A stretch of DNA of 64,000 nt from Dipteris shenzhenensis (Eukaryota), in the NCBI GenBank assembly GCA_047967505.1, contig CM106538.1. One strand, given 5' to 3'. Shown here piece after piece: positions 5,275 to 64,000 of this stretch; position 1 is the stretch's first letter; every line of letters begins with the position of its first letter. Made by a program: the position numbers and the translations under genes. The notes beneath the pieces are model-generated. The model had not been told where the DNA came from. It saw only the letters and a program-made list of their open reading frames with translations, and ran no database searches.

Positions 5275-5473
5275 AAGTGATGAAAATGTAATGATTTTTG
5301 TTTATATATTGAAATCTCGGGAACTGTAACTCTCTAACCATGGGGAGTTTACTCTTGTTGTAAAAAGCAAAAGTAATTCATTTCATGTGCTCTATTCACA
5401 TCTCCTGCTAGATTGCTGATTCGGAACTATTCCAACTCCACTTCATGGACGCACGCCACACGAGGAGGGTGGA

Positions 5474-6060
5474 TATTTCCCTGACCTTTTTGCAACTAGC
5501 TACTGCCACCTTTGCCATGTGACTGCCATAGAACACAAGATAGAGCTGAAGCCTAATGCGAAGACTGTGGCTCAGAAGTATCGGAGATTAGGGCCCCTAC
5601 AGACTGATGGTTTGTGCTCAGAGTTGCAGAAACTTGTAGAAGCTGGGTTTATTGTTCCGGTTCACAATACTGAATGGGTTTCACCAGTGGTAGTCACCCC
5701 AAAGAAAAACAACAAGTGGCGGGTCTACATTGACTATAAGAAACTCAATGCAGCCGCCAAGAGTAACCATCATCCTCTTCCCTTTCAAGACCTCATTCTT
5801 GAGAAGGTAAGTGGTCATGAGATGTATACTTTTTGTGATGGTTACTCTGGGTTTTATCAAATCAAAATTGCCGAAGAAGATGTGCTTAAAACCACATTTG
5901 CCACACCCTGGGGGACATTTGCATTCAAAGTAATGCCATTTGGCCTCACCAATGCTCTTGCTACCTTTCAAAGATTTATGCAAATGGTATGTGCTCCTTA
6001 TTTGGGGGATTTCTTGGAGGTGTTTTTAGATGATTTTTGTATATTCTCGTCACGTAAGGA
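5474..6060 (+). pseudogene. pol: Ty3/gypsy reverse transcriptase fragment
   Basis: ORF 5519-6073 has WVSPVVVTPKK, DYKKLN, DGYSGFYQI, KTTFATPWG, MPFGLTNA and FLDDF (YxDD-type). It is truncated just after the DD motif. Confidence 0.92.
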
Positions 6061-6170
6061 TTTTCAACCATAGCTTTAAAAGCTTTGAAATGCCCAAACA
6101 CTTCACTTTTCTTTTTCATAAAATGCACCCAAACTTTTCTGCTGTAGTCATCAATAAAAGTGACAAAACA
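6061..6170 (-). pseudogene. Isolated Copia integrase fragment (family A-like)
   Basis: Closely matches ~16419-16527 of element A; encodes VTFIDDYSRKVWVHFMKKKSEVFGHFKAFKAMVE. Confidence 0.85.
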
Positions 6171-25275: not shown

Positions 25276-27549
25276 TCACACCCCTTTAATGGGAATGTCC
25301 TTCCTCTGCATCAAACCAAGAGCTAGTCGGTGTTTCTCGAATAGCTCTTTACCGAGTGGTTTGGTAAAGATGTCTGCAACATTTTCTTTGCTATCACAAT
25401 GCTGCAGTGTGATGTCACCAAGTAACACTCTTTCTCTGATGAAGTGCTCTCTGACATCAATGTGCTTTGTTCTGGAGTGATATACTGGATTTTTGGCCAA
25501 TGCTTGAGCCGATTGATTATCACAGTATATTGTTGTTGGCTTTGACTCATCAAAGTAATCTGTTTCTGACAATAGTCTTCTGAGCCATATAGCCTCACAT
25601 GCACCTGTAGTGAGTGCCCTATATTCTGCTTCAGTCGAAGACAAAGAAACAGTTGGCTGTTTGTTTGACAACCATGATATAGCACCTTGACCAAGGAAAA
25701 ATGCATATCCCTGTGTCGATCTCCTGGTCTCATGATCTCCAGCATAGTCACTGTCACAGTATCCATGCAACCGTGGATGACTTCCTCTGTATTCTATCCC
25801 AAATTGTCTTGTACCTCTGATGTATCTCAAGACTCTTTTGGCTGCATTCCAGTGAGACTGTTTTGGATTTGCCATAAACTGTGCTAGTGAGCTTACTGCA
25901 TAACAAATATCTGGCCGTGTGATTGTCAGATATATAAGAGATCCAATGAGTTGCCTGTAGTATCTGTCATTGACTGTAGGCTTTTCTGAATCTTTAGTAA
26001 GTTTCAAACTCTGTTCCATGGGAGTGGCTGCAATCTTGCAATCTGCCATATGAAACTTCTTCAGGAGACTGTCAACATATTTGAGCTGACTCATGAATGT
26101 GCTATCTGAATCTCTCCAGAACTCAATTCCAAGACAATAGTGCATAAGTCCAAGATCTTTCATGTCGAACTCTGCAGATAAGTCTTGTTTTAGCTTTCTG
26201 ATGAAGCTATCCTTGCTTCCTGTCACAATCAGATCATCTACGTACAAAAGTGCAATAGTAATATCTTCCCCTTGAACTTTGTAGTAGAGAGTATGATCTG
26301 CATTGGACTTCATGTATCCCAGATCAGCAAAATACTTGTCAATTCTGCTGTACCAACTTCTGGGTGCTTGCTTTAAGCCATAGAGACTTTTCTTGAGATG
26401 GCAAACCTTGTTCTCCTGTCCTGGTTCAACATAACCGGCTGGTTGTTGCATGTAGACTTCCTCGTCTAGATAACCATTGAGAAATGCATTCTTGACATCG
26501 AGCTGATACACATTCCATTTACTGAGTGTCGCTAGTGATATCAAGAACCGTATGGAATCCATCTTTGCTACTGGAGCATAAGTCTCATCATAATCTTGAC
26601 CATATTGTTGTGCAAATCCTTTTGCAACTAATTTGGCTTTGTATCTCTGAATACTGCCATCTGGATTGTACTTCACTTTGTATACCCATTTGTTGGCTAT
26701 GGCCTTCTTTCCTGGTGGAAGGTCACATAATTCCCAAGTGTTATTTTTATACAAAGCATCCATTTCTTCATTCATTGCAGTTTGCCATTCTGGCTTATCT
26801 ACTGCGTCTTCGAAGTACACTGGCTCTTCTGTAGCCATGATGGTAGTCATAAGAGCATAGTTGGTGGTTTCCACCTGAATTGCTTTGCCTTTCTGAGCAT
26901 ATGTCAATCTGGCTGGTGGTCTGCTTTCCCTAGTAGACCGTCTGAGCTGCTGTGACGCTGATTGGGGTGTTGCTGGCAATTCTTGCTCTTCTTCATCAAC
27001 CTGTTCTGTAGATGACTGTGAAGTCGATGCTTCTATCTCCTGTGTAGGTGAGGTTTTCCATTCTGATTCCTCATCGAAGATTACATCTCTGGAGATAATG
27101 ACTTTGCGGTTGATGGGATCATACAATTTGTATGCTTTACTTTCTTCACTGTAGCCAACCATGATGCATTTGCGTGACTTCGCATCCAATTTCCTGCGAT
27201 GATCATCATGTATGTGGGCATATGCTATGCAACCAAATATGCGGAGATGCCCAATGCGTGGCTTGTGTCCAGTGAATGCTTCATAAGGAGTCATACCTTG
27301 TATCGGTTCGGTAGGAAGCCGATTAAGCAAGTAGTTAGCTGTAGCTATTGCTTCTGCCCAATACTGATTCGGAAGATGCTTTTCACTAAGCATTGCTCTA
27401 GCACTGTCTGCTAAAGTCCCATTCTTCCTTTCAGCTATTGCATTTTGCTGAGGAGTATCTGCACATGTGAATTGTCTTCGAATGCCGTGAGTTTTGCAAA
27501 AGTTCATGAAGGCTGAAGACATGTATTCACCTCCTCTGTCTGATCTCAT
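25276..27549 (-). CDS. pol: Copia C partial integrase plus complete RT-RNase H (757 aa, open)
   Basis: Begins at RSDRGGEY (second integrase D); then TPQQNAIAERKN, QLDVKNAFLNG, LYVDDL, DSDYAG, TEAEY and ADIFTK. No stops. Confidence 0.93.
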   Translation of the reverse strand: MRSDRGGEYMSSAFMNFCKTHGIRRQFTCADTPQQNAIAERKNGTLADSARAMLSEKHLPNQYWAEAIATANYLLNRLPTEPIQGMTPYEAFTGHKPRIGHLRIFGCIAYAHIHDDHRRKLDAKSRKCIMVGYSEESKAYKLYDPINRKVIISRDVIFDEESEWKTSPTQEIEASTSQSSTEQVDEEEQELPATPQSASQQLRRSTRESRPPARLTYAQKGKAIQVETTNYALMTTIMATEEPVYFEDAVDKPEWQTAMNEEMDALYKNNTWELCDLPPGKKAIANKWVYKVKYNPDGSIQRYKAKLVAKGFAQQYGQDYDETYAPVAKMDSIRFLISLATLSKWNVYQLDVKNAFLNGYLDEEVYMQQPAGYVEPGQENKVCHLKKSLYGLKQAPRSWYSRIDKYFADLGYMKSNADHTLYYKVQGEDITIALLYVDDLIVTGSKDSFIRKLKQDLSAEFDMKDLGLMHYCLGIEFWRDSDSTFMSQLKYVDSLLKKFHMADCKIAATPMEQSLKLTKDSEKPTVNDRYYRQLIGSLIYLTITRPDICYAVSSLAQFMANPKQSHWNAAKRVLRYIRGTRQFGIEYRGSHPRLHGYCDSDYAGDHETRRSTQGYAFFLGQGAISWLSNKQPTVSLSSTEAEYRALTTGACEAIWLRRLLSETDYFDESKPTTIYCDNQSAQALAKNPVYHSRTKHIDVREHFIRERVLLGDITLQHCDSKENVADIFTKPLGKELFEKHRLALGLMQRKDIPIKGV

Positions 27550-27926
27550 GACCTTGATTTTTCTGCCTGTCTGGTGTTGAGCTGTGCTAGCATGACATCT
27601 TGCACATTCTGCTTGATCAGGTGATAGGCATACTTGTCTTTCTTATCCCATTCTGCTTGAGCTCGGGCAATGGCAGGATCTGCTACTGGTGCGGAAACTG
27701 TTTGTGTAGATGTAGATCCCGATGTAGATCCCGTTGCTGGTGCTGTGACAACAGATGGAGTAGAGCTACTGGTGGCTGGATCTGCCAATGGTCTAGGTAT
27801 GGATCCATCGACATACTCCCATTTGTCCTGAAGCACAAGAATGGTCTCCATTCGGTATTTCCATGTACCGTAATTGGAGTTGTCTAACTTAGCAGATGCC
27901 TCCAGATTGAGGTTGCTAGTCGACAT
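27546..27926 (-). pseudogene. gag: Copia C truncated gag N-terminus
   Basis: MSTSNLNLEASAKLDNSNYGTWKYRMETIL...WEYVDG...WDKKD. It joins integrase-derived sequence out of frame near 27580. No knuckle or protease. Confidence 0.88.
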
Positions 27927-42122: not shown

Positions 42123-45100
42123 TTGGGTACACAGAATATTGGTGGGTTACATGAGAGGTGGACATTTGAGCTAACTCTAACAGTGTGCGCAATAGCATGT
42201 GTGATGTTGTGTCTGAAGACTTCAAAGACTAGATCCATAGGGAAGTATGTGAGATTTGCATTTTTGTGTGCTAAAAAGCTTGTTTTTCCACCTCCTAAGG
42301 ATTGGGGAGTGAACAAAAAGCGGACACCCTTAGCTTGCTACTTCCCTTTGCCAACACGGAGCCTATTTAGCTTTGCCATGAATTCTTTGTTTTGTTGGTG
42401 CATTTGCATGTCGAGCTCATAGTACACGACATTGTCTTTCCAAATAAAAGGTGCCATTGCTAACGTTGAGTTCTTGGTTGAAAATATCCAATTATCCTTT
42501 GTGGGACTTGCCTGGCATAGGTCTCCGCACATTAGAATGTCGATTCCTCCAAATGGTTGCAAGTGGTTGTGTTTGATCTCACGCATGCACATGTCTGTTG
42601 CTATGAAAGTGTTTTTCCCTACAAGGGAGATCTCATCGAACATAATCATTTCCGCGTCTTTGTATGAGTGTGAGAGAATTTGTAGTTTTTCTGTGGTTAG
42701 GGCTTTGAGGGTTGTTGCAAGCAATGGCAAGTGGCTAAGTTAGCTTTGCAATTTTACTAGCCATAGACATCTCCTATTGGGTTTCATAGATCTTGTTCTT
42801 TTGAAGACACTGGCTTTTGTAGCTCCAAAAAGGAGGCCCTACAACTTAAGTTTCCTTGTGTGAAAGTTTATTCATAGTTATCTTGTTTGTTTATGCCTTG
42901 TGATAGATTTGTTTTGAAGTCTATTGGTTCTCCCTTGTCAGACTTCTTGTCACTTAGCTTGGACTATAGTAGCAACAACATGTGGGTTTTGCCTGTCCCT
43001 ACATTTCCTGACAAAAATAGGCAGAGAGGCGAAGCACTGTGAAGGTGTTTCTTTAACATGACATGTTCGACCAGTATTCTTTGTTGCAGATTCAATTTCT
43101 TGAGCTCTTGGAAGTATTTTTGATTGGGCATGAAAACTACAGAGAAGTTTCCAAGATTGTCATTCTAGCTTTGTGGTTTGCAGTTTTCGAGCTCTATGTC
43201 AAGGTTGTAGTCAGCTGCTTGTGGTTCTTGTATGCTGGAAGTATTGGTAGATGATGGTGCTCCTCTTGGACCCATGCTTTCAATATCGTTGTTAAATTTC
43301 TTAAAGTTTAGATTGATTTGTTGTCATGTATGCATGTACATGTCATGCCATGTTGGGAAGTCGTCGTTTGTACATGGTTCATCGCAAATGAATGGCATGT
43401 ATAGCAAACACAATTCTCTGTAGAGAACTTTTGGGTCTTTTTTTTTTGTCGTAGTTATTGAAGCAAACTACCTTTGGTCTTTTTTGTTTGTTTGCTCCCT
43501 GGCTGGCTGGGTTGTACATGCTAGTATACTCAGCCAAGCACAGATGTTGTAGGTTGATCGGTTTGTTTTTGTACTTTCCAATTATGTCATTGCAGGCCTA
43601 TTTGACTCAGTTTTGGAGTCATAGTGGTGCAGGAAATTTATTACAGTTTTGGGACTATTTATGCATTCAAAGGTGGAAAATATATGTGCTTTCAGGGTTC
43701 AATTTGTCAAGAGCGCAACACATTCTTAGAAGCAGAGTACATTCCTAGGGGGGCTTGTGTTGATGTAGCAAAACTCCCTTGTACTTTGTTAATGGCAAGG
43801 ACAACGATAGGTACACCGCTTTTGCTAGGTGCTGATGTGTTGTGTTCAAGATTGCGTTGCCAATATTTCATACATGCTCGTTCGCTGGAACATTTCCCTA
43901 TCTCCAAACATTAGACATAGCTTCCTTCACCATGGCAGTTGTAGCGTGATCGACTTTTGTCATGTATGAAGTGCAATACGATGTTGTCACATGGGGGTTT
44001 GTAACAAATCGGATGTCTGTGTTTGCTCCCCATAGGTAGGAGATGTCAACATTGAAATTGTTTGTGAATATCTCTCTCGGGTGGCATTGCAAGAATATTG
44101 TTGGATGTGTAATGCTCGATTACAGTGCTTTGATGTACTCTTCCTCTGACAATGAGAGAGCATGCAATATTTCATCAAAATCAAGTGTTTAGATGGGACT
44201 TTCTTGCAAATAAGAGTCGATTCTTTTGCAATTTTTCAAATCTAGCTTCAAGGATGTTGTTTCTTGTAGTGGGTACAAAATCTTTGTTGATCTTATGGGA
44301 GGGCATGGGAAATTGAATCAACATGCTCTTCCTCTTTTCCTGCACGTTCTCTTGTGCTTGTGTTTTTGCATGTCTCGTAAGTCATTAAGGAGCTTTAGAA
44401 TATCAGTGGTAATGTGTTTATCAACAAAAGCTTTGATCTTATGGGTAGGTGTGTTGCCGTAAATGGGTGAATCTTCTACCCATAGATGACTGTGATCGTG
44501 CTGGCTTCCCCTATTTTGAAAATTTGTGACAAAGAAGAAATTGAGTACTCTACCTAGGATGCTTGTGTCTTGCTTGAGAAGGTGCTTCATAGCTTGAAAC
44601 TTATGGATGTAGTACCTCACAATTTGCTAGCTTTAGGGATTGTTCTATTGTGTTCTAACAGTGGATTCATCTTATGCAGGCAAGACACCAGTGGTTGCCT
44701 TTTTTTTTTTTGCAGTTAAGAAAGTCAAGAAGAAGGTTGGTGGACCTAATTGTCTTAGCATTGTGAAGAGGGTTTTTTTAAGCTTATCCTTATAGTCTAT
44801 CAAAGTCTACAAACATTCAAAGTCATAGAAGCCAATTGTGATTGAAGAAGTCTCTCAATATTAGTGGCCATAGTTGCATCCTTTGCCTGTATATGCTTAC
44901 CATGCAGTTGGGATTTGCGCATCCGAACCCAAAATGATGATAGCACTTGCACAACGAGCACTTTCATTGTTTTGAAAAATAAAATTTTCATGCACAGTGC
45001 AAATCTCCTATCATTGTTTGTGAGCAGCATGCAATGCTCTGGTACGATGTGCAATCAGGTACATTGTACTCCCTCATGTGCTCGTAAAATAGTTGCGAGA

Positions 45101-49279: not shown

Positions 49280-52200
49280 ATGGCATCCTCTTCCATGTCT
49301 GAAAAGGAGCTTTTCAGCATTAAAAAGTTTGATGGGACAAACTTTTCTTTGTGGAAAGAACAAATAAGGGATGTGCTTATTCAAAAGAAGCAGATTAAAC
49401 CCTTGGCAGGTATTGAAGCTAAGCCTACGGATATGTCTGAGGATGATTGGAATGAGTTGGATGCATTAGCAAAGTCTACTATTAGACTTCATCTTGCAGA
49501 GTCAGTTTATTTCACAGTAGTAAATGAGCAGACTACGGAAGATTTGTGGAAGAAACTGTGTGCCACTTATGAGAAGGAAACTGCCTCTAATAAAGTTTAA
49601 CTCATGAAGAGGTTGTTTGAGCTGCAGATGAAGGAAGGGGTCTCCATTGCTTCTCACTTGAATGAATTCAATATTATTTTCAGCCAGCTTCAGGCTCAGA
49701 AAATGAATTTTGATGCGGAGACTAAGGCAATATTTCTCTTATGTTCATTGCCATCCTCATGGGATACCTTCCGTACAGCTGTCAGTAACTCTGCACCTGG
49801 TGGAGTACTGAAATTTGATGATGTTGTGGGTAGCTTGTTGGCTGAGGAGATTAGACGGAAGTCTATGGATGGCAACAAGCAGGATGCAGCCTTAAATGTG
49901 CAAAGGGGCAGATCACAGTTCAGGGGGAAGTCCCAAGAAAGAGGGAAGTCTCGTAGCAAATCCAGGGCACGGAACATTGAGTGTTACCATTGTGGCAAGA
50001 AGGGCCATATGAAAAAGGATTGCTACAAGCTGAAAAGAGAGCAAAAGGATAAGAAAAAGAATGCAAATTGGGGTGCAAATCAAAAGGAAGAGAGCCCAAG
50101 GGAGGACAAAGGAAAAGTGAAGATCGAGGAGATCAATGCAGTCACACATGATAGTGACAATGACGTTCTCTTCATGTCTAGTTTATCTGCAGAGTTGCTT
50201 ACCACTTCAGATGATGCATATTCCCAGGATTGGATTTTGGATTCTGGTGCTTCATTCCATGTTACTCCCCATAAGGAATGGTTCTCCACTTATGACAGTG
50301 GAAAGACAGGTTGTGTGCATCTTGGAAATGACTATGCATGTGACATAGTGGGAGCAGGTGACATAAAGTTTTCTTTTGCAAATGGGTCTGCATTTGTTTT
50401 GAAACATGTGAGACATGTGCCTAAGTTGACCAAGAGTCTTATTTTAGTGGGTCAGCTAGATGATGCTAGTTTTCACACCACTTTTGGCTTTCAGAGTTGG
50501 AAAATTCAGAAGGGCTCTATGCTTTTGGCTAGGGGTGCCAAGTGTGGGACTTTGTATCCCTTACATGTATCAGGGGTATTTGATCATGTTGTTGCAATAA
50601 CCGAGCAGCCAAGCACTTCTTTGTGGCATTACAGGTTTGGGCACATGAGCCAGAATGGAATGAAACTCTTATGCCGTTTGGGTTATGTACCGCATTTGAG
50701 TTTCTCTGATTTTGAATTTTGTGAGCACTGTCTCTATGGGAAGCAGACTAAATCAGCCCATAAAAGAAGGGGAAAGAAAGAGTTTGAAATGCTTGATTTG
50801 GTGCATTCAGATGTATGTGGTCCCATGCCTACAAGGTCATTAGGCGGGGCTGAATACTATGTGACATTTATTGATGATGCAACTAGGAAAGTGTGGGCTT
50901 ATGCTATAGCTCGGAAGAGTGATGTGTTCCAGGTATTTCAAAAATGGCTGGCCTTGGTTGAGAATCAGTCAGGTAGAATGCTTAAATGCCTACGGACTGA
51001 CAATGGTGGAGAGTATCTCTCTCATGACTTTCAGCATTTTTGTGATACTCGTGGGATTAAGAGGGAGCTTACATCCCCTCGTACTCCAGAGCAAAATCCA
51101 GTTGTAGAAAAGATGAACCGTACCATTCAAGAAAGGTTGCAATGCATGCTTTCCAATGCAAGTCTTTCTGGTGGTTTTTGGGCTGAGGCAATGAAGACTG
51201 CAGTGCATGTGATCAATAGATCACCTAGTAAGAGTTTGGATGGTGGTATTCCTAAAGAGGCATGGAGTGGCAAGAAGCCCTCTTACTCTCATTTGCATAT
51301 ATTTGGGTGTGAGGCATATGCACATGTGCCAAAAGAGCTTCGAAAGAAGCTAGATCCTAAGTCTAGGAAATGCATCTTTCTAGGTTATGGTGAAAGTGGA
51401 GAGATGGGCTATCGTCTCTGGGATCCAGAAGCAAAGAAGATCATACGCAGCCATGATGTGGTCTTCAATGAGAAGAAGATGCATAAGGCACCCATGAGGG
51501 ATGTGGAAATGAGGAGAATCACTTTCCAGGATGTGAATCCACCTGCATATGTTGATAGACAGCAAGCTGTCCATGCACCAAATGTGCAAGAAATGGTACA
51601 ACCAAGTACTCCCACAGGTATACAATCAAGGGTAGATGATGGATCATCTATTGGTGGAAATGATGAGCCAAATGTGGCTGATATGCAAGTGGGACAGCAA
51701 GCTGAAATGCCCTTGAGAAGATCATCTAGAGTGTCTAGACCGCCTGATAGGTTTGTTCTAGGGGTAGACTATGTGATGCTTACTGATTGCAGGGAGCCTT
51801 CTTGCTATAGAGAGGCTATGATGCATGAGGATCAACGCAAGTGGGAGTATGCTATGCAATCAGAGATGAGTTCACTTATGAAGAATAAGACTTGGGACTT
51901 GGTTTCTTTGCCACATGGAAAGAAAGCATTGCCATGTAAATGGGTCTACAAAATGAAGCTCACAGGTGATGATGTGCCTAGGTACAAGGCCCGTTTGGTT
52001 GCTAAAGGGTTCAAGCAAGAGAAGGGTGTGGACTTTGATGAGATATTCTCTCCGGTTGTGAAGATGACCACACTTAGATGCATGCTTGGACTAGTGGCAG
52101 TAGAGGATATGGAGCTTATGCAAATGGATGTCAAGACAGCTTTCTTGCATGGGGATTTGCATGAGAAAATTTACATGGTGCAGCCGGAAGGCTTTGAAGA

Positions 52201-53344
52201 AAAGGGCAAAGAGCATTTAGTTTGCAAGCTGAAAAAGAGTCTCTATGGTTTTAAGCAAGCACCTAGAGAATGGTATCAGAAGTTTGATGCTTTCATTCGG
52301 TCCCAAGGTTTTAGAAGGAGTGAAATTGATCACTGCCTCTACACTAAAAGGGCTAAGGATAGTAGCCTGATAATCCTGGCACTATATGTGGATGATATGC
52401 TATTGGCTAGCAAGAATACTTATGAGGTAGATGCATTAAAGGCCAAGTTGCATGAGGCCTTTGATATGAAGGATTTGGAATTTGCAGGTCATATTCTTGG
52501 TATGCGCATCACGCGTGATCGGAGTAGGAAACTCCTTTGGCTTTCACAAAAAGAGTATGTTACAAAAGTATTGCAGCGTTTCAATATGGAGGGGGGGAAG
52601 GCAGTGAGTACTCCATTGCCTCCATATGTGAAACTGAGTCATACAGATAGTCCCAAATCAGATGAGGAGAGGGCCATGATGGCCAAGGTTCCTTATGCAT
52701 CAGTAGTTGGGAGTCTTATGTATGCTATGATAGCTACTAGACCAGACATTGCATTTGCAGTGGGAGTTGTTAGCCGGTATATGGCTAATCCAGGAAAGAG
52801 GCATTGGGAGGTAGTTAAGTGCATCATGAGGTACATGAAGGGTACCAAGGAGATGTGCATCTGCTTTGGTAAAGAAGACATGCGTGTACTTGGGTACACA
52901 GATTCAGACTATGCAGGGCATGTGGATAGTAGGAGATCCACTTCTGGTTATGTGTTCACCTTTGCAGGTGGTGCAGTGTCGTGGATGTCTCGCACACAGA
53001 AGTGTGTTACTTTGTCTACCACAGAGGCTGAGTATGTTGCAGCCATAGAGGGTTGCAAGGAGGCTATATGGCTTGATCGGCTAGTGGGAGATTTGGGGAT
53101 TCATACAGGTGTACCGACATTGCATAGTGATTTCATGAGTGCTATTCAGCTAGCATGGAATCTGGTCTTTCATGCAAAGACCAAACACATTGAGGTCAGG
53201 TACCATTTCATCAGGGAGGTACTTGAGGACAAGTGCATAGAGCTTGTCAAGGTTCATACAGATGATAACCCTGCAGATATGCTGACGAAGAGTCTACCTA
53301 GTCAGCGGTTTGAGTATTGTCGTGTATTGATGGGCATTGGATAG
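49280..53344 (+). pseudogene. gag-pol: Copia D gag-pol polyprotein with one in-frame stop (49598-49600)
   Basis: KFDGTNFSLWK, CYHCGKKGHMKKDC, WILDSGASFH, HSDVCGP/RTDNGGEY, QMDVKTAFLHG, LYVDDML, DSDYAG, ADMLTK. ORFs 49256-49600 and 49604-53344 are in the same frame. Confidence 0.96.
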
Positions 53345-53397
53345 TATGCTCACTGGTTGTTCTCCCTTAAAGGCACATTGTCCTTTAAGTGGGAAGT

Positions 53398-53568
53398 TGT
53401 GGGGGTTAAAGGTCACTGTGCCTTAACCCCGGTTATGTACAATACTCAAACACATATATAAATGAATGAAAAAGAAGATTAGGGTGGTTCTGCACCCACC
53501 AAAACTTGTGTGGCTCTCTGTCTCTCTCTCTCCTTCTTCCGTTCTTGCTTCCGTTGAGAGCACTCTCA
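53398..53568 (+). repeat. 3' LTR of Copia D
   Basis: No difference seen versus 47682-47852. Confidence 0.96.
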
Positions 53569-53799
53569 TGAAAGCATTGTAGTTTGAAGCTAAAGAAGAA
53601 GACATGTCCAAATGAAATGAGGGAAGACAACCACGTTGCTCTAAAATGGAGGAGATTTGAAAATGTCAATATTGAAGGATCCAATAAAAGGAGATGGCTA
53701 TTGTCATGTAAGAGCACTCAGCCAAGGGTCCAGCTTGTAGGTCATGTGGTTCAATCCACCCCAAAATATGTGCTTCACAATCTCACGGCTAGTTGGTAG

Positions 53800-54034
53800 G
53801 ATGTGCCTTGCCAATTTTCCCGGTGACACTATTGTATCTGTCATAGATTTTGCAAAAAATTATTCTTTTCAAGAACAAGATGAGATACAGAGTGCTCACT
53901 GGTGCAACAAGCAGTTCAAGATGTGCCTTGCCAATTTTCCCGGTTACACTATTGTATTTGTCATAGATTTTGCAAAAAATTATTCTTTTCAAGAACAAGA
54001 TGAGATACAAAGTGTTCACTAGTGCAACAAGCAA
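53800..54034 (+). repeat. 120-bp in-frame tandem duplication within the transposase
   Basis: GATGTGCCTTGCCAATTTTCCCGGT... at 53800 and 53920. Confidence 0.92.
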
Positions 54035-55329
54035 ATAACAATTCTTGTGCATATCACATATAGTCATTTGCTTGACTCTTCCATGCCTGATGCCAATCTA
54101 CTTGTTGACTCACAGGGGTCCAGGTCAGTGCAATGCACTTACCATTTCTACATTTCAGATGATAGGGAACATGACACCCTCTTTGTGTAGCATGCTTTTC
54201 TACTACATTGGGAATGGCTGAAAAAGAAAAATCCCCATGCAAAAAATATAAAACAACATTGGGTGTGGTTAGATGATGCTGCCTCTCAATTTAAATCAGC
54301 ACGTGGATTCTACTTCATCTTAAGGTTCAAATCCCTGACCGGTCTAGACATGATGTGGAATTTCTTTGGGTCTAGCCATGGCAAGGGTGAACATGATGGA
54401 TGCAGTGCTGTTATTAAACAAGCTCTGTTTAAACACCAATTAGCATGCCCTCAAGAAAAACTCAATGATGACCATGATGCTATAACATGGCTTATAGCCA
54501 ACCTCTCCATAGGTGCGCATTCAACATACAGTAAACAAAGCCTTAAGAATAATGTAGTACGTAGAGTGTTCCATGAAGTGAAAGTGGATGAAGTGCAAAG
54601 GAGAAGCCGGCATGATTGTGAGAAAATTAAAGGAGTTCATGGTCTGCACAGCATATGGGGCTTTTCAAACAACCAACTGATTGAAATGAGAAAACTTTCT
54701 TGTTTCTGTAGTGTGTGCACCGTAGGGGATCATGACGATTGTGAGAACATTGCAACTGTGAAGACATGGGAGTGAGTTCAAGTTTTTTCTCTATGTTCAA
54801 ATGGAGTGACAAACAATGGAGAGACAAATGACTCGCCACAGTTTGGGGAGAGTTTCAATTACCTCACTGACTATCTAGAATAGGGGGATAAGTTTGCAGT
54901 TGTCGCAGATTTTGGGGAGAATGAGGAAGATGACCCATACTTTCTGTTGCAGTGCATAAAACCTAAGTACAAGGTTGAGGAAACATTTGAGGATACTTGG
55001 GGAACAATCTATGAGAGTGGGATGTAGTAGTCGGAGCTTTTTGGTACAAAAAAACATCCAAGAGAGGCCGCAATTATGAACTGCTACATAAGAGTCCACA
55101 AACATGTGTACTCTCATCTAGTAAGAGCTATTAAGTTCCAGATGCAACCTGTGCCACAATGAAAGAAGGGCAAGAGTGTCTTCAAATTGGATTTCGACAT
55201 GCATGAGCACATCTTGGGTGTCTTGGAGTAGTGGACGAGGACGACTAAGATAGTACTAAGAAAATGTATGTAGTCTCAATGTAGGAAAACAATATGTCCA
55301 CTTGTCCTACAAAATGGAATTTGTATTGA

Positions 55330-55925
55330 GATTGCTTGTTTTTAGTATATCCCAAACAACCACCGTGTTGGTTTTATTGAATTATTTTTATAAATCACAA
55401 ATAGTAAAACCCATGCTTGTTTTTAGTATATCCCAACAACCACTGCATTGGTTTCCCATAATGAATCCACACACCCTATAAATCCATTCATCTTGTAATA
55501 ATAGAAGCAAACCACCGTGTTGGTGGTTGTTCATATCCTAGTGCAAACCAACCACTGCACTGGCAATAACTTATCCTGCACTACTACCGTGCTATCCCTA
55601 CACTACTGCTGTGCTATCCTAAAATTTGTTGCACAGTGCTATACTAAAACAGTGCCCTTTAGACTGCTTATCATTTTGTTAACCGTCACATTCCATCCCA
55701 TGCTTTATTTTAGTATATCCCAACAACCATCGTGCTGGTTTCCCATAACAAATCCATTCATCTTGTAATAATAGAAGCAAACCACTATGTTGGTGTTTGT
55801 TCATGTTCTAGTGCAACCAACCACTGTGCTAGCAATAACTTGTCCTGCACTACTACCATGCTATCCCTACACTACTACCATGCTATCCTAAAATTTATTG
55901 CACAGTGCTAGTGCCCTTTAGATTA
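55330..55925. repeat. Direct repeats (~270-bp period) downstream of the transposase
   Basis: AATCCATTCATCTTGTAATAATAGAAGCAAACCAC at 55481 and 55751; TTTTAGTATATCCCAA(A)CAACCA x3. Confidence 0.82.
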
Positions 55926-56681
55926 GGTATAGTTAACAGTCAGATTTCAACCACCGGGCTACTTAAAACATTTAAGTACTAACGTGGAAGCAAGTCGATA
56001 CAAAATCAGGTATTATGAGCACCATGAGAATATCCACAAGTTCAAACCATCTGCAATATTTTTATTATTTCAAAACACAATGATATTTTGCTTTTTCAAG
56101 GAAATTCCAGACTCCCAACAATCTTATCAACCTCTCTAAGCTCTTGAGGCCAGTCTGTTGCTCAATGGTAGACCTCTTCACACACTTGAATTATACTCTA
56201 TTTTCTTGACTCTACCGACTTATATGCCCATAGTAACTCTTCCTTTCACTGGGGGTCCTCTTCATCCTAGTCTTTGCGGTCTATACATCTTCGCACCTCT
56301 ATCATGTCCTGCCAAAAGAAACCTACATCATGAGCTTGACAAGTACCTTAAAGGAGTAGGAAAAACAATAGCCAGGGAAATTATTCACCGTCTGTGCCGA
56401 CTCCAAGTAATAAACCCACCACCAAAGCATGTCCTCCTTGCAGCTATTTTCCTCCTTCTCTGGGTCTGTTTCTCCGAGGATTTCATCCAACATCATTTTC
56501 AGATAGAACAAAAGCATTCCAAAGTCTTTTGGGTATGCCATAGATTCACAGTAGGTGGATCAACATACAAAGTTTGGATTGGTGTATAGAGTTTTGGGGC
56601 TAGATTTCATAATGGGCTCTTAGTTGTGTCTGCACTACACTTAAATAGGGAGAGAGTTCATTGAGCCCAACCTTCTCATTC

Positions 56682-56890
56682 TTCAGTCTCATGTTATTTG
56701 TCTAATCTAAGTCTTTCATCTCATATTAGTTGTCTAATCAAAATATATCGTCTCACATTAGTTCACTAATCGAAATCTTTTAGTCTCACATTAGTGATCT
56801 AATTTAAATATTTTGTCTCACATTACCTGTCAAATCGAAATCTTTCATCTCACATTACTTGTCAAATCGAAATCTTTCATCTCATTATTA
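56682..56890. repeat. ~32-bp minisatellite, about 6 copies
   Basis: Consensus near TCTCACATTAGTTGTCTAATCGAAATCTTTCA. Confidence 0.85.
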
Positions 56891-57025
56891 TCACCATGCT
56901 GGCGTGGATCAAAGGACACTATCTAGTCACTTAGCTGAGAAAACATTACGCCCAAGTAAACTTTGGAGAAGATTAACAAATCAATAGATTACAATCTCAA
57001 ATACTCCTTTACTTTAGATGACATC

Positions 57026-58860
57026 TTAAGGACTCCTTGTTGAGCTCCCTGATTGCAGGCGTAGCGCTCCTTGCTCCTTTCTAGAATGGGGCTGGTTCCT
57101 TCCTATAGGGGCTCGGCCCTTCCCTTCATACTGCTTCCTCTTTCCTTGATTTGAGCTTCCTGGTTGTTGCAAGCTCAGCCCTTCTTGCTCCTTTCTTGAA
57201 GGGGGCTGCTTCCTCCCTTCAGGCTCCTTTTCCTCGCAATCAGGTTCAGTCTTGGCCTTCTTCAATTTGAGCTCCTTGTCTTTAAGATCTTTTGCCCAAA
57301 TGGCAAATTGAGTTATAGCATCTGCTTTCTTGTCGTAGATAGTTGTAGTAGGCAAGCACATTTGATCTATCCATGACCTAGGCAATGGCAAATGGCATTC
57401 TCTACATAGAGATTTTGTATGCACAAAAACGTGCACAGGGTGGTAGCATCCAAAGTAGAAAACGTGCACAAGGTGGTAGCATGCAGGCCATCGGATATAG
57501 CAGTCATCTATGATGGGGTATGGTAGACCATGCATTTCGGACCTTGTTGTATAGCATGATAGGCATCCGATTTAACTATTGTGACCATCAATACCACAGT
57601 CTTGCTCTATACATGACGAAGTTGCTTCTTGATTCCTTCCTCCCTCATCCTAAGGCTATGGATGTTCTTCTTCATCTCCTCCACTTTTTGCTCACTGTGT
57701 GCAACAGCTTCATCTGAATCCCTCAGCATCTATTGAAGCTACATAAATTGATGAAAAACATCTAAATAGGTGGTTTCCAAGACTTCCACTCTAGTTTAGA
57801 AATCTCATAAGACGACAAACTGCATTTCATAACTGTTGAAAGCCATGGCAAGCTTGTGTAAACATCTATCCCGATCTTCTTGTAGGGTCTTGTAACTTGC
57901 TCTTTGGACTTCCAATCGTATTTCGAAAAAATAACCCTCACCGTGGCTGCTACAAATTGCTCCACTGTGGTGGCTGGAACTAGCTCCACCAAGGTGACTA
58001 AAACTAGCTCCACCATGGCTTGCTCCATCGTAGCTGCTCTCTGCATCCTTCCTAGCCTGGGGAGTTGCCTCGTTGTCTTCTCCACCTTGACAGCTCTCTA
58101 CCCCATCCTTCCTAGCTGTGAAGCTCTCTCGTAGTTCCTGCATCACCTTTTTGGTTTTTGCATTCTTCCTTTTCAACTCCTCCATCATCTAGTCTTTTTT
58201 AATACTCAATGCATTGTGCATATTGCAGAGCCATTTGTAAAGACCCTCCTTTTTGGCTCTTTGGTCTTCAAGCTCCTTTTGCATCTTTTCTAGCTCCTTG
58301 TCCATCATGATCTCCATCATTCTCACTTCTTCAAGCCTATCTCGGAGCTCCTTCATGTGCTTCTCTACTTCTTTTCTATGCCTTTCCATGTCGACCAATT
58401 TTATAGCGGCCTCCTCTACCTTGGCTTCTGCACCTTCCTTGAGACTTTTCTCAAGTTGCGCTACTCTGCTGCATCAGTGGCTTTCTCTTGTAGAGAAGTC
58501 ACCTTCTGAGATATTTAAATTCTTGTATTGCTCAAAAATCCCTTTGGGGGTAGATGCCATTAGGTGCATTGCAACTCCAATGGACTGAGATGACAATTGG
58601 GATTTGCCATCCATGCAATTCATGTTGGTTAACATGCTCTTGGAGATTGTCCTTGAGAAAGATACATGATGTCCTTTCAGTTGCTCTACTATTGCTTGAA
58701 CCTACCAGAACTTGCAAGTTCCTCTCGTATCAAGAGAGAAGTGAATGGTCTTCTTCAACCATCTTGGAGGTCTGTTGGCAAGCTCGAAATCTTTACTCCA
58801 CCATAGTTACTATTCTGAGCGTTCGGGTATACATCTAGAATATCTTGTCTCTTCCACTGC
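57026..58860 (-). pseudogene. Decayed gene: coiled-coil protein with a RING-H2-like Cys/His cluster
   Basis: E/K/R/L heptad-rich ORFs (58189-58398, 57805-58188) are followed by GPKC(frameshift)GLPYP...CYHPVHVF...LCRECHLPLPRSW and a charged tail. Stops and frameshifts throughout. Confidence 0.45.
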
Positions 58861-59329
58861 TTCTCAAAAAAGTGTGCTTCATTAGGGGAGAACTGGGGTC
58901 TCTAAAGGGCCCCCAATTAGTGTTTCCTAATTTCAAGGGATTAGTGAGGTATTTGAGATGTACCAATGGGAGTGCTCCTTTTTGTGGGGCAATGCCATGT
59001 TGAGGTGGAGGGTGGGCAGACCTGCAAATAGCCCCTATTGGTTACTTCTCTTACACCAGGGACCACTCAAAACATCCCCCCCCCTCAACTCATGCTTGAC
59101 CCTTCTCCCATATGCATCTCCCCCAAACAAACCTACAAGTCATTCAAGAGGCAGTGGCCCTTCTGGGCAAAATTTCCCCCCTCTCAGCTTGTTATAGGCC
59201 TAACCCCTCCTCTGTTCTAGTCCAGCTCCATTCTCCCTCTATTTTTCAAACATGGGAACTCATTTGGCATCTTCTCTGTCCCCTCTTGCTCTGGTCCACT
59301 GTGTTTCTCCCTCTCCAGCACCTCCTGTA

Positions 59330-59570
59330 GAAGTTGCTCATTCTCTCTGCATTCCTAGCTATAGCACCTCCTACAGTAGCAGCTGCTCATCCCCCTCTAC
59401 TCTTTCTCCCTCCAATCCTAGCTACAGTACCTCTTGTAGTGGCTGCTCATCCCCCTCTGCTCTTTCTCCCTCCATTCCTAGCTACAACACCTCCTGGAGT
59501 AGATGCTCATCCCCCTCTACTCTTTCTTCCTTCATTCCTAGCTATAGCATCTCTTGGAGCTTCTCTCAAC
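59330..59570 (+). repeat. 60-bp tandem repeat, about 4 units (Ser/Pro-coding potential)
   Basis: GCTCATCCCCCTCT(A/G)CTCTTTCT at ~59385, ~59445 and ~59505; CCTAGCTA x4. Confidence 0.85.
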
Positions 59571-59682
59571 CTTCAGTTGCACCCTCTATACCTTTTCCCT
59601 CTCTCTCCCTCTATCAGAGCTACTCTCTCCCTCCAAGTTGCACTTTTTAGTCCACTATTGCTGTTGTGACCTCTGTACAAGC

Positions 59683-61080
59683 ATGGTGAGGAGACCATAC
59701 ATGTACTTTGTGTCCCACAGGAGCAACAATACACTGGGTGAATGGTTGCCTTGCACCTACAGCTTGAATGATTGGATAGTCATGAGCGGATCTGCCAAGG
59801 GTCCACATAAGCTTCTTAAGAGAAAAAGAGGTGATATTTTGCATGAATGGAAGGGCCGCATCATGAAGTTCAAGCTTTGGAAGAAAGGATTACTTGCAAA
59901 TGTGCAACACATCTACATGGGGAAGGACATGTGCCTTCCTCCATCAAGCAATCATGAAGTTCAAGCTTGGGAAGAAAGGATTGCTTGCAAATGTGCAACA
60001 CATCTACATGGGGAAGGACATGTGCCTTCCTCCATCAAGCAATCAATCGACAATACCATCGCATTGTAAGTCTGCATTTTGTATAAGATTTTGAAGTGTA
60101 ATGAGTCAATTTGAAATTGTATTTTGAAATAGAACCAGTGTAATGAGTCAGTTTGAAATTGTATTTTGAAATAGCACTTGTGCATAGCAGATGCATTTCC
60201 TTCAGACTTTGAGGAGTGGGAACCAATCGAGTGCTTCTTAGGTAAGTTTACTACCATTCATGAGGATTTAGGAAGGCAAATGCATGCTGGAGAGAAGTCC
60301 TTTGCTTTCAAACAGAGAAATATCTATTGGTATAATGCCAAGTACATTACTCCAAGAACGACATCAGGCTATGGCCATCTTCAATGCATTGCAACACCAC
60401 AACTTGAAGACATGGATTGCAGCATGGTGGACACAAGAACAATGCAATTATATAAGGAAAAGATTGCAAAGGATGTGGGCATGGCCATGAAGTTTACATT
60501 TGGCTCTAAATGGGTAAGGTTGTCTTGGTTTATGCCTCTACACATTTTTGCTTCTTGTTTTTAGAATATCCAGATGCACAAAACAAAAACCATGTGGTCA
60601 TGCAAGTGCCTACATGAGAATTCCCTTGAGGAATTGCTTGGGGTGAATTGGGGACGCAGGTCAGGTGAACAAAAGGGTGATTTGTTTCTATGCCATGTAT
60701 GTAAGGACAATGTGGTTGTCAAGTACCACATCTCCTGCCAAATGTTATATTTTTCTTTCCAATATAGGTGTTGGAAGAAAATAGGTGGCAATTGGCTCCC
60801 CCTTCACTCTAACGATGATGATAATACCGGGGTAAGTTTATGTATTGCTTCTCATTTAGGAGATGTCAAGAATGTGACTGTCACATCACAATGGACTCTT
60901 AGGGACGTACGGGAACACCTATTTGTCATGGAGGATGGCATGTCTAAGTCCTTTCACTTTACCTTAAATGGTGAAAAGGTAGGAAAGCGTGCAGAGAAGC
61001 TCGTGCATAGTGCCACTTTTATCCCTCCTACAATATTGAAGATTGTAAACAATGTGGGGTGGAACAATTGTGGACTTTGA
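59683..61080 (+). pseudogene. Spliced gene remnant: BAH-like N-terminal domain and ubiquitin-like C-terminal domain
   Basis: Exon 1 is 59683-60065 and contains a frameshifting 91-bp duplication. A GTAAG..TAG/CAG intron at 60066-60187/60190 restores frame. Exon 2 is open to 61080 except for one TAG at 60562. Motifs: YSLNDWIVM, WKGRIMKF, VQHIY, FPSDFEEWEPIECFLGK and VTVTSQWTLRDVREHL..FHFTLNGEKV. Confidence 0.55.
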
Positions 61081-61302
61081 CATTTTCCAATTAATAGTGG
61101 TGCAATTAATTTTGATGTTTTGAATGGTTTTGTTTGATGTCAATGTCAAGTTTTTCTCAAAAATTTTATAATTCTTTTATTTTTTATATTTAGAACATTT
61201 GGGTATATATAGGTTATAAAGTTACTTTAGTTTCAAAGTTTCACTATCATAGCCATATTTCTCCTAGCTACCAAACTACCATGGATTCTGCTACGTCTTC
61301 CT

Positions 61303-63151
61303 TGTTGAGATATTGAGCTCCACTCGCGATGTGCCAGGGTGACCGTTGTGCATTTATGTCACCGACTTGTTAGCTATAGATGCGGTTGGTACACCGCCCA
61401 CGAATAATAGCTGGATGACAGCTATCCTTATCTACACTAGTTCGTGGCTCAGTTAGTATGCCACCTTAGTTAGTTGAGTTTGGTTTGAGACCCACATATA
61501 GGGTTCTTCTATTTCTTTGTACTAGAGTTCTTTTGGCTTTCACAACTAAGAAGAGGAAAACTGTTTTTCAGCCTCCACCTTTGTGTGTATTCCCCCATTG
61601 TGTATGTGAGAAAGCTGCAAGTGAGACTCCTTCCCTCTCTCCCACTATCTTCACATGGTATCAGAGCCTTGTTCGTGGTAAGGAGCTCAAGAAAGCAAAC
61701 AAGTTCGCAGTGTCCTGGTAAGAGGACCAGTGTTGCTTTCCTTTTTCGAGTTTGGGAGCAAATCTCTGTAGGTAGCACAGCCGGAAGTGCAAGAGTGCAC
61801 TGTCTCAGATTGAGACGCCCTTCGTGGTGTGGCGAGAGGGCATTATATGCTGCGGGAAAGGGCAAATCCCATCAGTGACTTTATTTTTCTGATTCGAGGT
61901 CATTTCGGGGCCCGTTTTGGAGGCGGAAGTTCTCCGCAGGCACTCAGGAAGAGGCCCTGTTTTTGTTGTGCGACCACTATTCTGTAGGTCGGTGAAAAGT
62001 TGCCACAGAAATTGCATCGTATGCCTGTAACGCAGAGATATTGGGAGTTGCAGAATCATCCTTATTGCCTATTGATGCAAAATCGTCACTAGGAAGTGAC
62101 TGTGTGGTCAAAAAACCACTTTTGTCAGGTTTGCAGATCTGCCCTTGTGAGGCAGAAGCTGTGTCTTTTGCAGTGATAGAATATTTTATAGTGTTCTATA
62201 ATGGCGTCTAATTCTCTTTCACAGATTGTCACTGAAAAGCTTGACAAGAACAACTTCCAAGCATGGAAGTTTAGAATGACGAATTTCCTTATGGGAAAAG
62301 GCTACTGGGAGTTCATTACAGGAAATGAAGAAGAACCAGTTGTTCCTAATGTTCCCAATCAACAGGAAATGCAGGCATTTAAAGGATGGCATGAGAGAGC
62401 CAGAAAATTTATGTACTGGTTGTCTATCAGTATTTCAGATTCAATGATTGTGCATATTCAGGATGCAAGTACGCCAAAGGTGGCATGGGATACTTTGGCT
62501 AAAATGTACAGCACAAATACGCAGGCCAGGAAAATACAGCTCAAGCAGGAGCTCAAGCAGGAGCTGCACAATGTGTAGAGAGAAAATATGAGCATCAATG
62601 ACTACCACATGAAGGTGAAGAAAATTGCGGATGCACTTGCTTCCATTGGGTCACCAGTGGATGATGATGATTTAGTTTCTGTGACCTTGAATGGTCTAGG
62701 AAAGGATTATGCACAGTTCCGGACATCCATTGCCGTCCGTGAAAAATTTCTTGATTTTTAGGAGTTGATTGCTCTTCTAATTTCTGAAGAGCAGAGAAAT
62801 GGTGGTGCATCTTCTTCAGGAGGAACTTCAAAAGAAACTGTCTTCTACTCAAATGCTGGAAGGGTTAGAGGCAGAGGTAGAGGAGACCGATCTGGAGGCC
62901 GTGATAGAAATCAGAATATGCAGCAAACTCAAGAAAACCAGTCCTATGCAGGAGGACGTGGTAACTCTAGAGGTAGGGGGAGCCAAAGAGGTCGTGGTGG
63001 ATGGCAGAGAGGCCAAATGCAAACAGCAATGTTGGATGCTACTACTGTGGTAAAATGGGGCATATGGCTAAAGACTGCTACAAAAAGCAAAATGACATTA
63101 TGAATGGAAAATTGCAGCAAGGCAATTATGCATCCTCTAGTAGACAGGGTG
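61303..63151 (+). mobile_element. Second Copia A-family copy (5' LTR 61303-61655, PBS, leader, gag), interrupted at 63152
   Basis: The LTR is the reverse complement of the element A LTR with scattered changes. PBS TGGTATCAGAGC at 61656. Confidence 0.95.
62201..63151 (+). pseudogene. gag: Copia A-family gag (stops, frameshift)
   Basis: MASNSLSQIVTEKLDKNNFQAWK...CYYCGKMGHMAKDC; near-identical to the gag of element A. Confidence 0.93.
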
Positions 63152-64000
63152 TGTTGGGATATCTCAAGGTGTATGCCTCAGGCACACCTTATGTTTCTAT
63201 GTGTGAGTGCTAGAGGCACAGTTAGGTGCCCACAAGCACAGTTAGGTGGTGGAAAAGCCACATAGGATGATTGAGTGAATCTAGGAGCAGATTGAGGAGA
63301 TGATTGTGGAGCTTTGAGGTCATCAGTGATGTCAGTGACCTTGTATGAGGTGCCTACTTAAGGACCTCTTTCTTCTTCATTCTATAAGCAAGTATTCTGA
63401 ATTTGTGTCAACTCTACTCTTTCCTTTCAGCATTCCAACATGGTATCAGAGCCATTTGATCCCCCTTGAGCCCATTTCTGCCACATCATCATCTTCTTCT
63501 TCATCTTCTTCTTCTCCATTTTCCTCTTTCTTCCCAAAATCTTTGAGAGCTTGGTTCTCCATCTACAAACGACCATTGCCCAAACCCTCTGAGCTGGAAA
63601 CTCCTCTAGTATGGGCGAACTTCCACCTGCAAGCAATTGAAGAAAAAACGTCTGTGGTGGCTGCCATTCTCCAAACAGCGAATTTCTTCTGTTGCTCAAT
63701 ACTCCCTGCCTGCTCTGCCATTGCCTGAGCCCTCTTAGGAGTAGATGGGCGACCTCAAGACGAAGATTTTGAGCCATTTTTCAAGTCATTTGGTTCAGTA
63801 ACGAGGGAGAAATCGTCAAAACTCAGTTTCAGCCTGTAGCAACTCTCCCGGGCAAAAGTGCGCACCATTTCGTCCAACCTCTGTGCTGGACCTTCTCTGG
63901 TATATGAGCTTTCTTTTGCTTCAGAAAGCCCTCTTTTCTTTGCTTTGAAGAGTGAGCTACAAGCCCTCCAAGTTCAGCTTTTCATTTTTGACAGTTTTGG
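63152..64000 (+). mobile_element. Start of another LTR retrotransposon nested in the gag (5' LTR 63152-63440, PBS, leader), running off the window
   Basis: TGTTGGGA...TTCCAACA inverted termini, then TGGTATCAGAGCC at 63441. The host gag breaks exactly here; predicted TSD GGGTG. Confidence 0.88.

Follow-up and report, generated by a model that had tools for sequence, protein, structure and literature searches.

Known BAH readers and the layout of the locus

BAH domains constitute a main class of nucleosome/histone-mark readers, and in plants they feed Polycomb and DNA-methylation pathways. In BAHCC1 and TNRC18, the BAH domain reads its mark via an aromatic cage of Trp/Tyr residues. UHRF1 carries an N-terminal ubiquitin-like domain (UBL), TTD/PHD/SRA reading modules and a RING ligase, and has no BAH domain. 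Proteins of the UHRF1 type combine histone/DNA-reading modules and a non-conjugated, partner-recruiting UBL in one chain, a design logic that they share with the family discussed here. In UBX domains, the FPR loop binds the N domain of CDC48/p97.

BAHCC1 and TNRC18 are very large animal proteins whose BAH domains, according to the titles of the PDB entries, read H3K27me3 or H3K9me3. These two proteins provide the best Foldseek and sequence-profile matches to the BAH part of the family; however, the aligned Trp is a His in the family (see below). The plant BAH readers EBS/SHL, AIPP3, and ORC1b are BAH-PHD or BAH-TFIIS proteins (PDB 5z8n, 5z8l, 7cce, 5hh7) that carry neither a UBL nor a domain of unknown fold, whereas the family has both of these C-terminally and lacks PHD and TFIIS. 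The family also differs from the plant readers in missing the Pfam BAH cut-off and in having His at the BAHCC1 cage-Trp position.

The gene lies on the plus strand at positions 59683–61080 of the window, by which we mean the whole analyzed stretch of 64,000 nucleotides from Dipteris shenzhenensis. A preliminary description of this DNA had proposed two exons encoding roughly 390 residues after repair of one duplication and one stop. Sequence and frame reading recovered all of its elements at the positions where it had placed them, and joining 59683–59859, 59951–60065, and 60191–61080 gives 1182 bases, i.e., 393 codons plus TGA with a single internal stop. The features are as follows.

59337..59556 (no strand assigned): 60-bp tandem repeat with 3.6 copies (TRF), ~130 bp upstream of the start codon
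59683..60065 (plus strand): exon 1, encoding the first two thirds of the BAH fold and containing the frame-shifting duplication
59860..59950 (plus strand): extra copy of a 91-bp tandem duplication in exon 1, 98% identical to its partner at 59951–60041
60066..60190 (plus strand): phase-1 GT..AG intron of 125 nt, lying in a Tyr codon
60191..61080 (plus strand): exon 2, encoding the last third of the BAH fold, the middle domain, the UBL and the stop
60191 to ~60393 (plus strand): last third of the BAH fold in exon 2 (approximate; transferred from the P0038 model via phmmer alignment)
~60394–60815 (plus strand): middle domain (approximate; same transfer from P0038)
60562–60564 (plus strand): premature TAG, codon 222 of 393, inside the middle domain
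~60820–61060 (plus strand): UBL (approximate; same transfer from P0038)
61078–61080 (plus strand): stop codon TGA, the end of exon 2

The start codon is the ATG at 59683; the MVRRP that it opens corresponds in the alignment to M..RRP(R/S), the conserved N-terminus of full-length relatives. Two relatives, P0015 and P0020, align over exon 1 (tblastn). The upstream 60-bp repeat accompanies the gene in the contigs of other sequencing runs with a varying number of units, and go-back joints and loose ends are present at 59504–59559 in contigs of all four runs that were compared (X1, X2, X3, and X12).

The locus belongs to a sizeable family. The exon-2 read-through (P0001, with X at the stop) matches the closest relative, P0002, with an E-value of 4e-115 and 58% identity (166 of 287 residues; counts from BLASTP), and P0002 represents a cluster of 61 sequences at 90% identity, several of which are truncated or frame-shifted. 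When all 1.84 billion cluster representatives (50% identity) were scanned with HMMER, 140 proteins had E ≤ 1e-3, of which 64 had E ≤ 1e-10 and nine had E ≤ 1e-30. The conceptual 393-residue product aligns with a profile built from 13 relatives (A4) over residues 12–370 in one stretch, scoring 341.5 bits, against a maximum of 7.0 bits among 200 shuffles. Only two members are named, P0163 from Adiantum capillus-veneris and P0120 from A. nelumboides, both as hypothetical proteins, and the other members derive from ENA, Logan, or JGI contigs.

Searches with Pfam of four pieces of the window, 14 relatives, and the full-length open reading frame of the metagenome contig L001 gave nothing above cut-off for any domain; P0015, P0009, and P0002, which are among these relatives, and the window pieces had no BAH match either. 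A literature search at the level of titles and the openings of abstracts found no description of a family with BAH plus ubiquitin-like domains. Both results agree with the "unfamiliar architecture" that the preliminary description had seen. Whole-protein leads from the ESM Atlas (DUF569/Ubiq_DUF_assoc and doublecortin) scored ≤ 0.84, below the trust level, and were discarded.

Two members of the family deserve separate comment. In the P0028 cluster (P0028 and P0174–P0187; 29 members, most of the listed ones 593–594 residues long, on contigs of ~2.2 kb), the complete BAH/middle/UBL protein is preceded by a fused N-terminal part of ~200 residues that contains a C4 zinc ribbon. The zinc ribbon scores 24.2 bits against Zn_ribbon_LapB, for which the cut-off is 25.7, and this part is, we presume, RadA-like. 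The cluster looks like an intact chimeric member that is probably transcribed. On L001, open frames at 1371–2051 (minus strand), with the pattern H..H...G.L..WS.QG.E..H, lie tail-to-tail with an intron-less full-length family gene; these frames match no Pfam family and have no counterpart in the window.

Predicted folds of the three domains

The folds were modeled on relatives of the window copy, to which they are 24–58% identical: P0038 (24% identical over exon 2) and P0085. P0038, a full-length intron-less protein of 418 residues, was folded by AlphaFold with an alignment of 114 family sequences, giving a mean pLDDT of 89.2 and a pTM of 0.77. The high pTM suggests that the three parts pack as one body.

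The preliminary description had read a BAH-like motif order in the N-terminal part, and the prediction for P0038 bears this out at the level of the fold. In Foldseek, the best matches of this part are the BAH domains of BAHCC1/TNRC18 (PDB 6vil and 8ds8; E 6.8e-6 and 1.9e-5). At the level of sequence, the profile match to the BAHCC1 BAH, which pairs the motifs V.(W/H).Y and (L)Y.S..ED, is not significant (E 0.042), and among 11 further relatives only P0101 matched the Pfam BAH family (PF01426), with 15.5 bits (E 0.017) against a cut-off of 30.8 bits. More generally, the sequence-profile matches of the family to solved BAH and UBL chains have E-values of 0.04–2.6, and none is significant. In the HMM alignment, the family sequence V-Q-H-x-Y falls on V-K-W-F-Y of BAHCC1, and the His is nearly invariant (H81 of P0101). 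The aligned BAHCC1 Trp is a cage tryptophan of the methyl-lysine-reading BAH; a His at this position makes canonical methyl-lysine reading doubtful.

The C-terminal part, for which a beta-grasp resemblance had been noted, is likewise predicted in the relative to be ubiquitin-like, with the order beta-beta-alpha-beta-beta-(alpha)-beta and superposition on known UBLs. Sequence profiles against SUMO2, ubiquilin 3, and the At2g32350 UBL gave E 0.09–0.27, which is not significant, and identity to the PUX5 UBX (9v9o), the FAF1 UBX (3qq8), SUMO, and the ubiquilin UBL is 5–16%; only the fold is shared. Conjugatable modifiers end in di-glycine or have a single exposed glycine. Of 57 family sequences selected by regex, one has GG within the last eight residues, in an unalignable tail; the window copy ends in ...NNCGL. 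UBX domains carry the FPR motif, whereas it follows the UBL start motif in none of these 57, a rough denominator since some sequences were picked up by the regex at a site outside the UBL. Lacking both di-glycine and FPR, the UBL is neither a conjugatable modifier nor a textbook UBX. No catalytic domain was recognized in the family protein.

Between the BAH and ubiquitin-like folds there is a third domain of ~140 residues (approximately residues 190–333 in P0038) that the preliminary description did not notice. A natural fragment consisting of this alpha/beta domain alone, P0085, was folded with 93 aligned sequences (pLDDT 93.3), and in the model a helix precedes a mixed sheet that has two long hairpins. 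Conserved motifs in the domain are MK..(T)GS......WF.P.HV, (M)D.GWD.K, and (R)YHI.RQ.LY..F.Y.R. Foldseek against the PDB returned a best match with E 0.05 and a TM of ~0.2, and the ESM Atlas gave no usable match. A sequence-profile match to ZW10 in the PDB (E 0.008 and 0.21) was not backed by a fold match and was taken as chance. At least among PDB structures, the modeled middle domain thus appears to be without a recognizable relative.

Splicing and decay of the window copy

Contigs from the four public runs were compared with the window over 59500–61300, where X12 covered one of 30 bins. The contigs are 88–99% alike to the window, and they may stem from paralogues or from other individuals and not from this very locus; X2 alone has 45 contigs that match the 1.8-kb stretch, at 88–99+% likeness.

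The donor of the intron, GTAAGT, starts at 60066, and the acceptor, TAGCAG, is of the NAGNAG type with AG at 60186–60187 and 60189–60190. In contigs of X2 and X3, which come from two studies, 60065 is followed immediately by 60191, and the 125 bases left out have GT..AG ends (X2 is guessed to be RNA and X3 DNA, such that the joined form may be a transcript or a retro-copy). Splicing has occurred at exactly 60065/60191, and given this joint, the distal AG is the acceptor seen in use. The junction codon T+AT encodes Tyr and restores the frame as ...SH-Y-AFPSD, in accordance with the frame-restoring phase-1 intron of the preliminary description. In one X2 contig, 29 unrelated letters instead abut exon 2 at its first base, 60191; this loose end at 60190 suggests an alternative upstream exon or a chimeric paralogue with the same acceptor.

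Conservation of the intron and the frame in homologues had been set beforehand as a test. In L002, a distant relative from a metagenome, exon 1 ends ...TGC AAC T, followed by GTATGT...TTTCAG and then AT TTG TAT CCA TCC, i.e., an intron in phase 1 in the same Tyr codon, with the motif C-N-Y-L-Y-P-S. P0015 and P0020 have read-through inserts at the alignment column of the intron, and P0172, an intron-less contig form of the P0017 cluster, has His-Tyr at the junction. The intron is absent at that position in P0038, P0161, P0157, P0032, P0063, and L001. The intron is thus real and old; it and the frame are conserved in distant homologues, and it is present in some lineages only.

The window copy carries two lesions. 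As 91 is not a multiple of three, the extra copy of the exon 1 duplication puts the frame that starts at the ATG out of register after ~90 native residues, and this frame stops at the TAA at 60067–60069. The second lesion is the TAG in the middle domain, opposite which P0002 has Lys. Position 60562 is a C in all listed contigs of X1, X2, and X3 that cover it, giving CAG or CAT rather than TAG. An X1 contig joins 59859 to 59951 and hence lacks the extra 91-bp copy, an X3 contig skips 97 bases at the site of the duplication, and the cluster member P0015 carries the 91-bp segment once. The duplication and the TAG are private to the window copy. With a 91-bp frame shift and a C-to-T change to TAG, a full-length product cannot be made from this copy; since other contigs are without the duplication and have C at 60562, the locus is a pseudogene with private lesions.

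Could splicing remove the TAG? A short candidate intron at 60514–60564 (GTAAGG...TTTAG, 51 nt) would hide it; however, P0002 and its cluster read through this segment as conserved protein. The GT..AG candidates at 60701–60767 and 60832–60859 are likewise read through as protein in P0002 and the cluster, and all three were rejected.

The intron contains a further tandem duplication, of 42 bp, at 60095–60178 (93% identical), and an X1 contig that joins 60094 to 60137 lacks the extra copy. Among the listed coding differences between the window and the contigs of other runs, 20 of 23 are non-synonymous and three are synonymous; this ratio is partial, the 23 being drawn from 40 differences shown, with 75 more outside the sample. 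A non-synonymous excess of 20:3 is close to the expectation for unconstrained change.

Two other readings of these data have to be weighed. That non-coding DNA resembles BAH and ubiquitin here by chance might be argued from the absence of Pfam matches to the window's own pieces. However, the match to P0002 at E 4e-115, the 140 relatives, a family score of 341 bits against a shuffle maximum of 7, and confident models of relatives with strong fold matches leave this reading with practically no probability, and homology, relatives and shuffle control can be said to have refuted it. Alternatively, the organism may have an intact gene, both the duplication and the stop having entered the record through faulty sequencing or assembly. 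Consistent with such errors, X1 and X3, runs that bear the same species label, have contigs with neither the duplication nor the TAG; but these contigs are only 88–99% alike to the window and may be paralogues or other individuals. Moreover, the two 91-bp copies differ at two positions and the intron has the second, 93%-identical duplication, while a simple stutter error would look otherwise, and the non-synonymous excess fits decay. We therefore regard errors in the record as improbable. The locus is a pseudogene, a decayed copy of a two-exon nuclear gene for a protein of ~393 residues from an undescribed multi-copy eukaryotic family; that it is one such copy among many had escaped the preliminary description. 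We consider it likely that the explanation holds as a whole, i.e., that this is a dead copy of a BAH/middle/ubiquitin-like family gene whose intact members probably act as chromatin adaptors.

Genomic surroundings and proposed role

The window is plant-type nuclear DNA with 38–51% G+C, and it is crowded with retroelements. The following features were identified outside the gene.

5420–6073: reverse transcriptase (Pfam)
25276–27642: Ty1/copia polyprotein (Pfam)
42338–42739 (minus strand): PIF1-like helicase fragment (PF05970, E 9.4e-13)
49601–53344: Ty1/copia polyprotein (Pfam)
62192–62578: gag open reading frame (Retrotran_gag_2, E 1.3e-12)

The helicase fragment at 42338–42739 is probably a Helitron remnant. 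Between the copia element and the gene, at 54191–54775 (plus strand), there is an open frame of 194 residues with an ...SSHGKGEHDG... motif and a Cys/His-rich tail, for which Pfam gives no match at E ≤ 0.1. Degenerate direct repeats of ~32 bp (family D1, five copies) form an array at 56650–56907, in the upstream spacer. Downstream, a Ty1/copia element at 61299–62578 begins ~220 bp after the stop codon of the gene. An X2 contig that matches the window to 61298 and then diverges marks the insertion point of this element, and TGGTATCAGAGC at 61656 is presumably its tRNA-Met-type primer-binding site.

These surroundings raise the question of whether the family is a host gene family or is borne by transposons, either as an accessory gene of an uncharacterized DNA transposon or as a host gene captured and amplified by, e.g., a Helitron or a Pack-type element. 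In the transposon scenario the BAH would serve chromatin targeting or counter-silencing, and the locus would be a dead copy of the element. The multi-copy nature of the family, with many decayed members (the 61 sequences of the P0002 cluster with truncated and frame-shifted forms, and the 45 X2 contigs on this stretch), is compatible with such an origin, as are the mostly non-synonymous coding differences (20 of 23 in the listed sample), the density of copia and other retroelements together with the PIF1-like (Helitron-type) helicase fragment, and the conserved tandem repeat that accompanies the gene upstream. However, there are no inverted repeats of at least 30 nt in 53000–64000, the neighboring open reading frames have no transposase domain in Pfam, and tblastn detects a single copy of the gene in the 64-kb window. 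Longer fused forms were absent among 5618 candidates, which is weak evidence, and no relative was found in viral contigs; in BFVD there were no matches at E ≤ 0.001, and the only hits were to giant-virus UBLs at E ≥ 0.009. Relatives down to ~24–35% identity retain the three-domain architecture and the intron position, which fits long-term selection on the protein, yet a long-lived element could equally keep both. For the other copies, the genomic context consists of three metagenome contigs of ≤ 2 kb. On balance, we judge transposon cargo to be the less favored origin, one that nevertheless retains a real minority share of the probability.

By analogy with the systems discussed above, intact members of the family are probably non-enzymatic chromatin adaptors. 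The BAH domain would dock on the nucleosome or a histone tail, and in view of the His its ligand may differ from methyl-lysine, while the non-conjugatable ubiquitin-like domain would provide a docking surface for a partner that recognizes ubiquitin folds; candidates are an E2/E3, a segregase, or another chromatin enzyme. A family-specific surface would come from the middle domain. The adaptor function is inferred from this comparison.

The family joins a BAH fold and a ubiquitin-like domain via a domain that has no solved relative, a combination absent from Pfam, and the His in place of Trp at a cage position hints that its ligand differs from the usual methyl-lysine. Ferns have very large genomes with a high transposon content. 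A speculative extension, which we put forward tentatively, is that an amplified BAH/new-fold/UBL family in ferns and some unsampled eukaryotes takes part in the conflict between genome and transposons, acting for the host as a heterochromatin adaptor or, if carried by transposons, as a chromatin-targeting/anti-silencing factor, with the middle domain representing a new fold. The locus in the window is itself dead, and its value is as a pointer to the family: a recently amplified, chromatin-reader-like family in ferns is a candidate player in genome defense or transposon biology.
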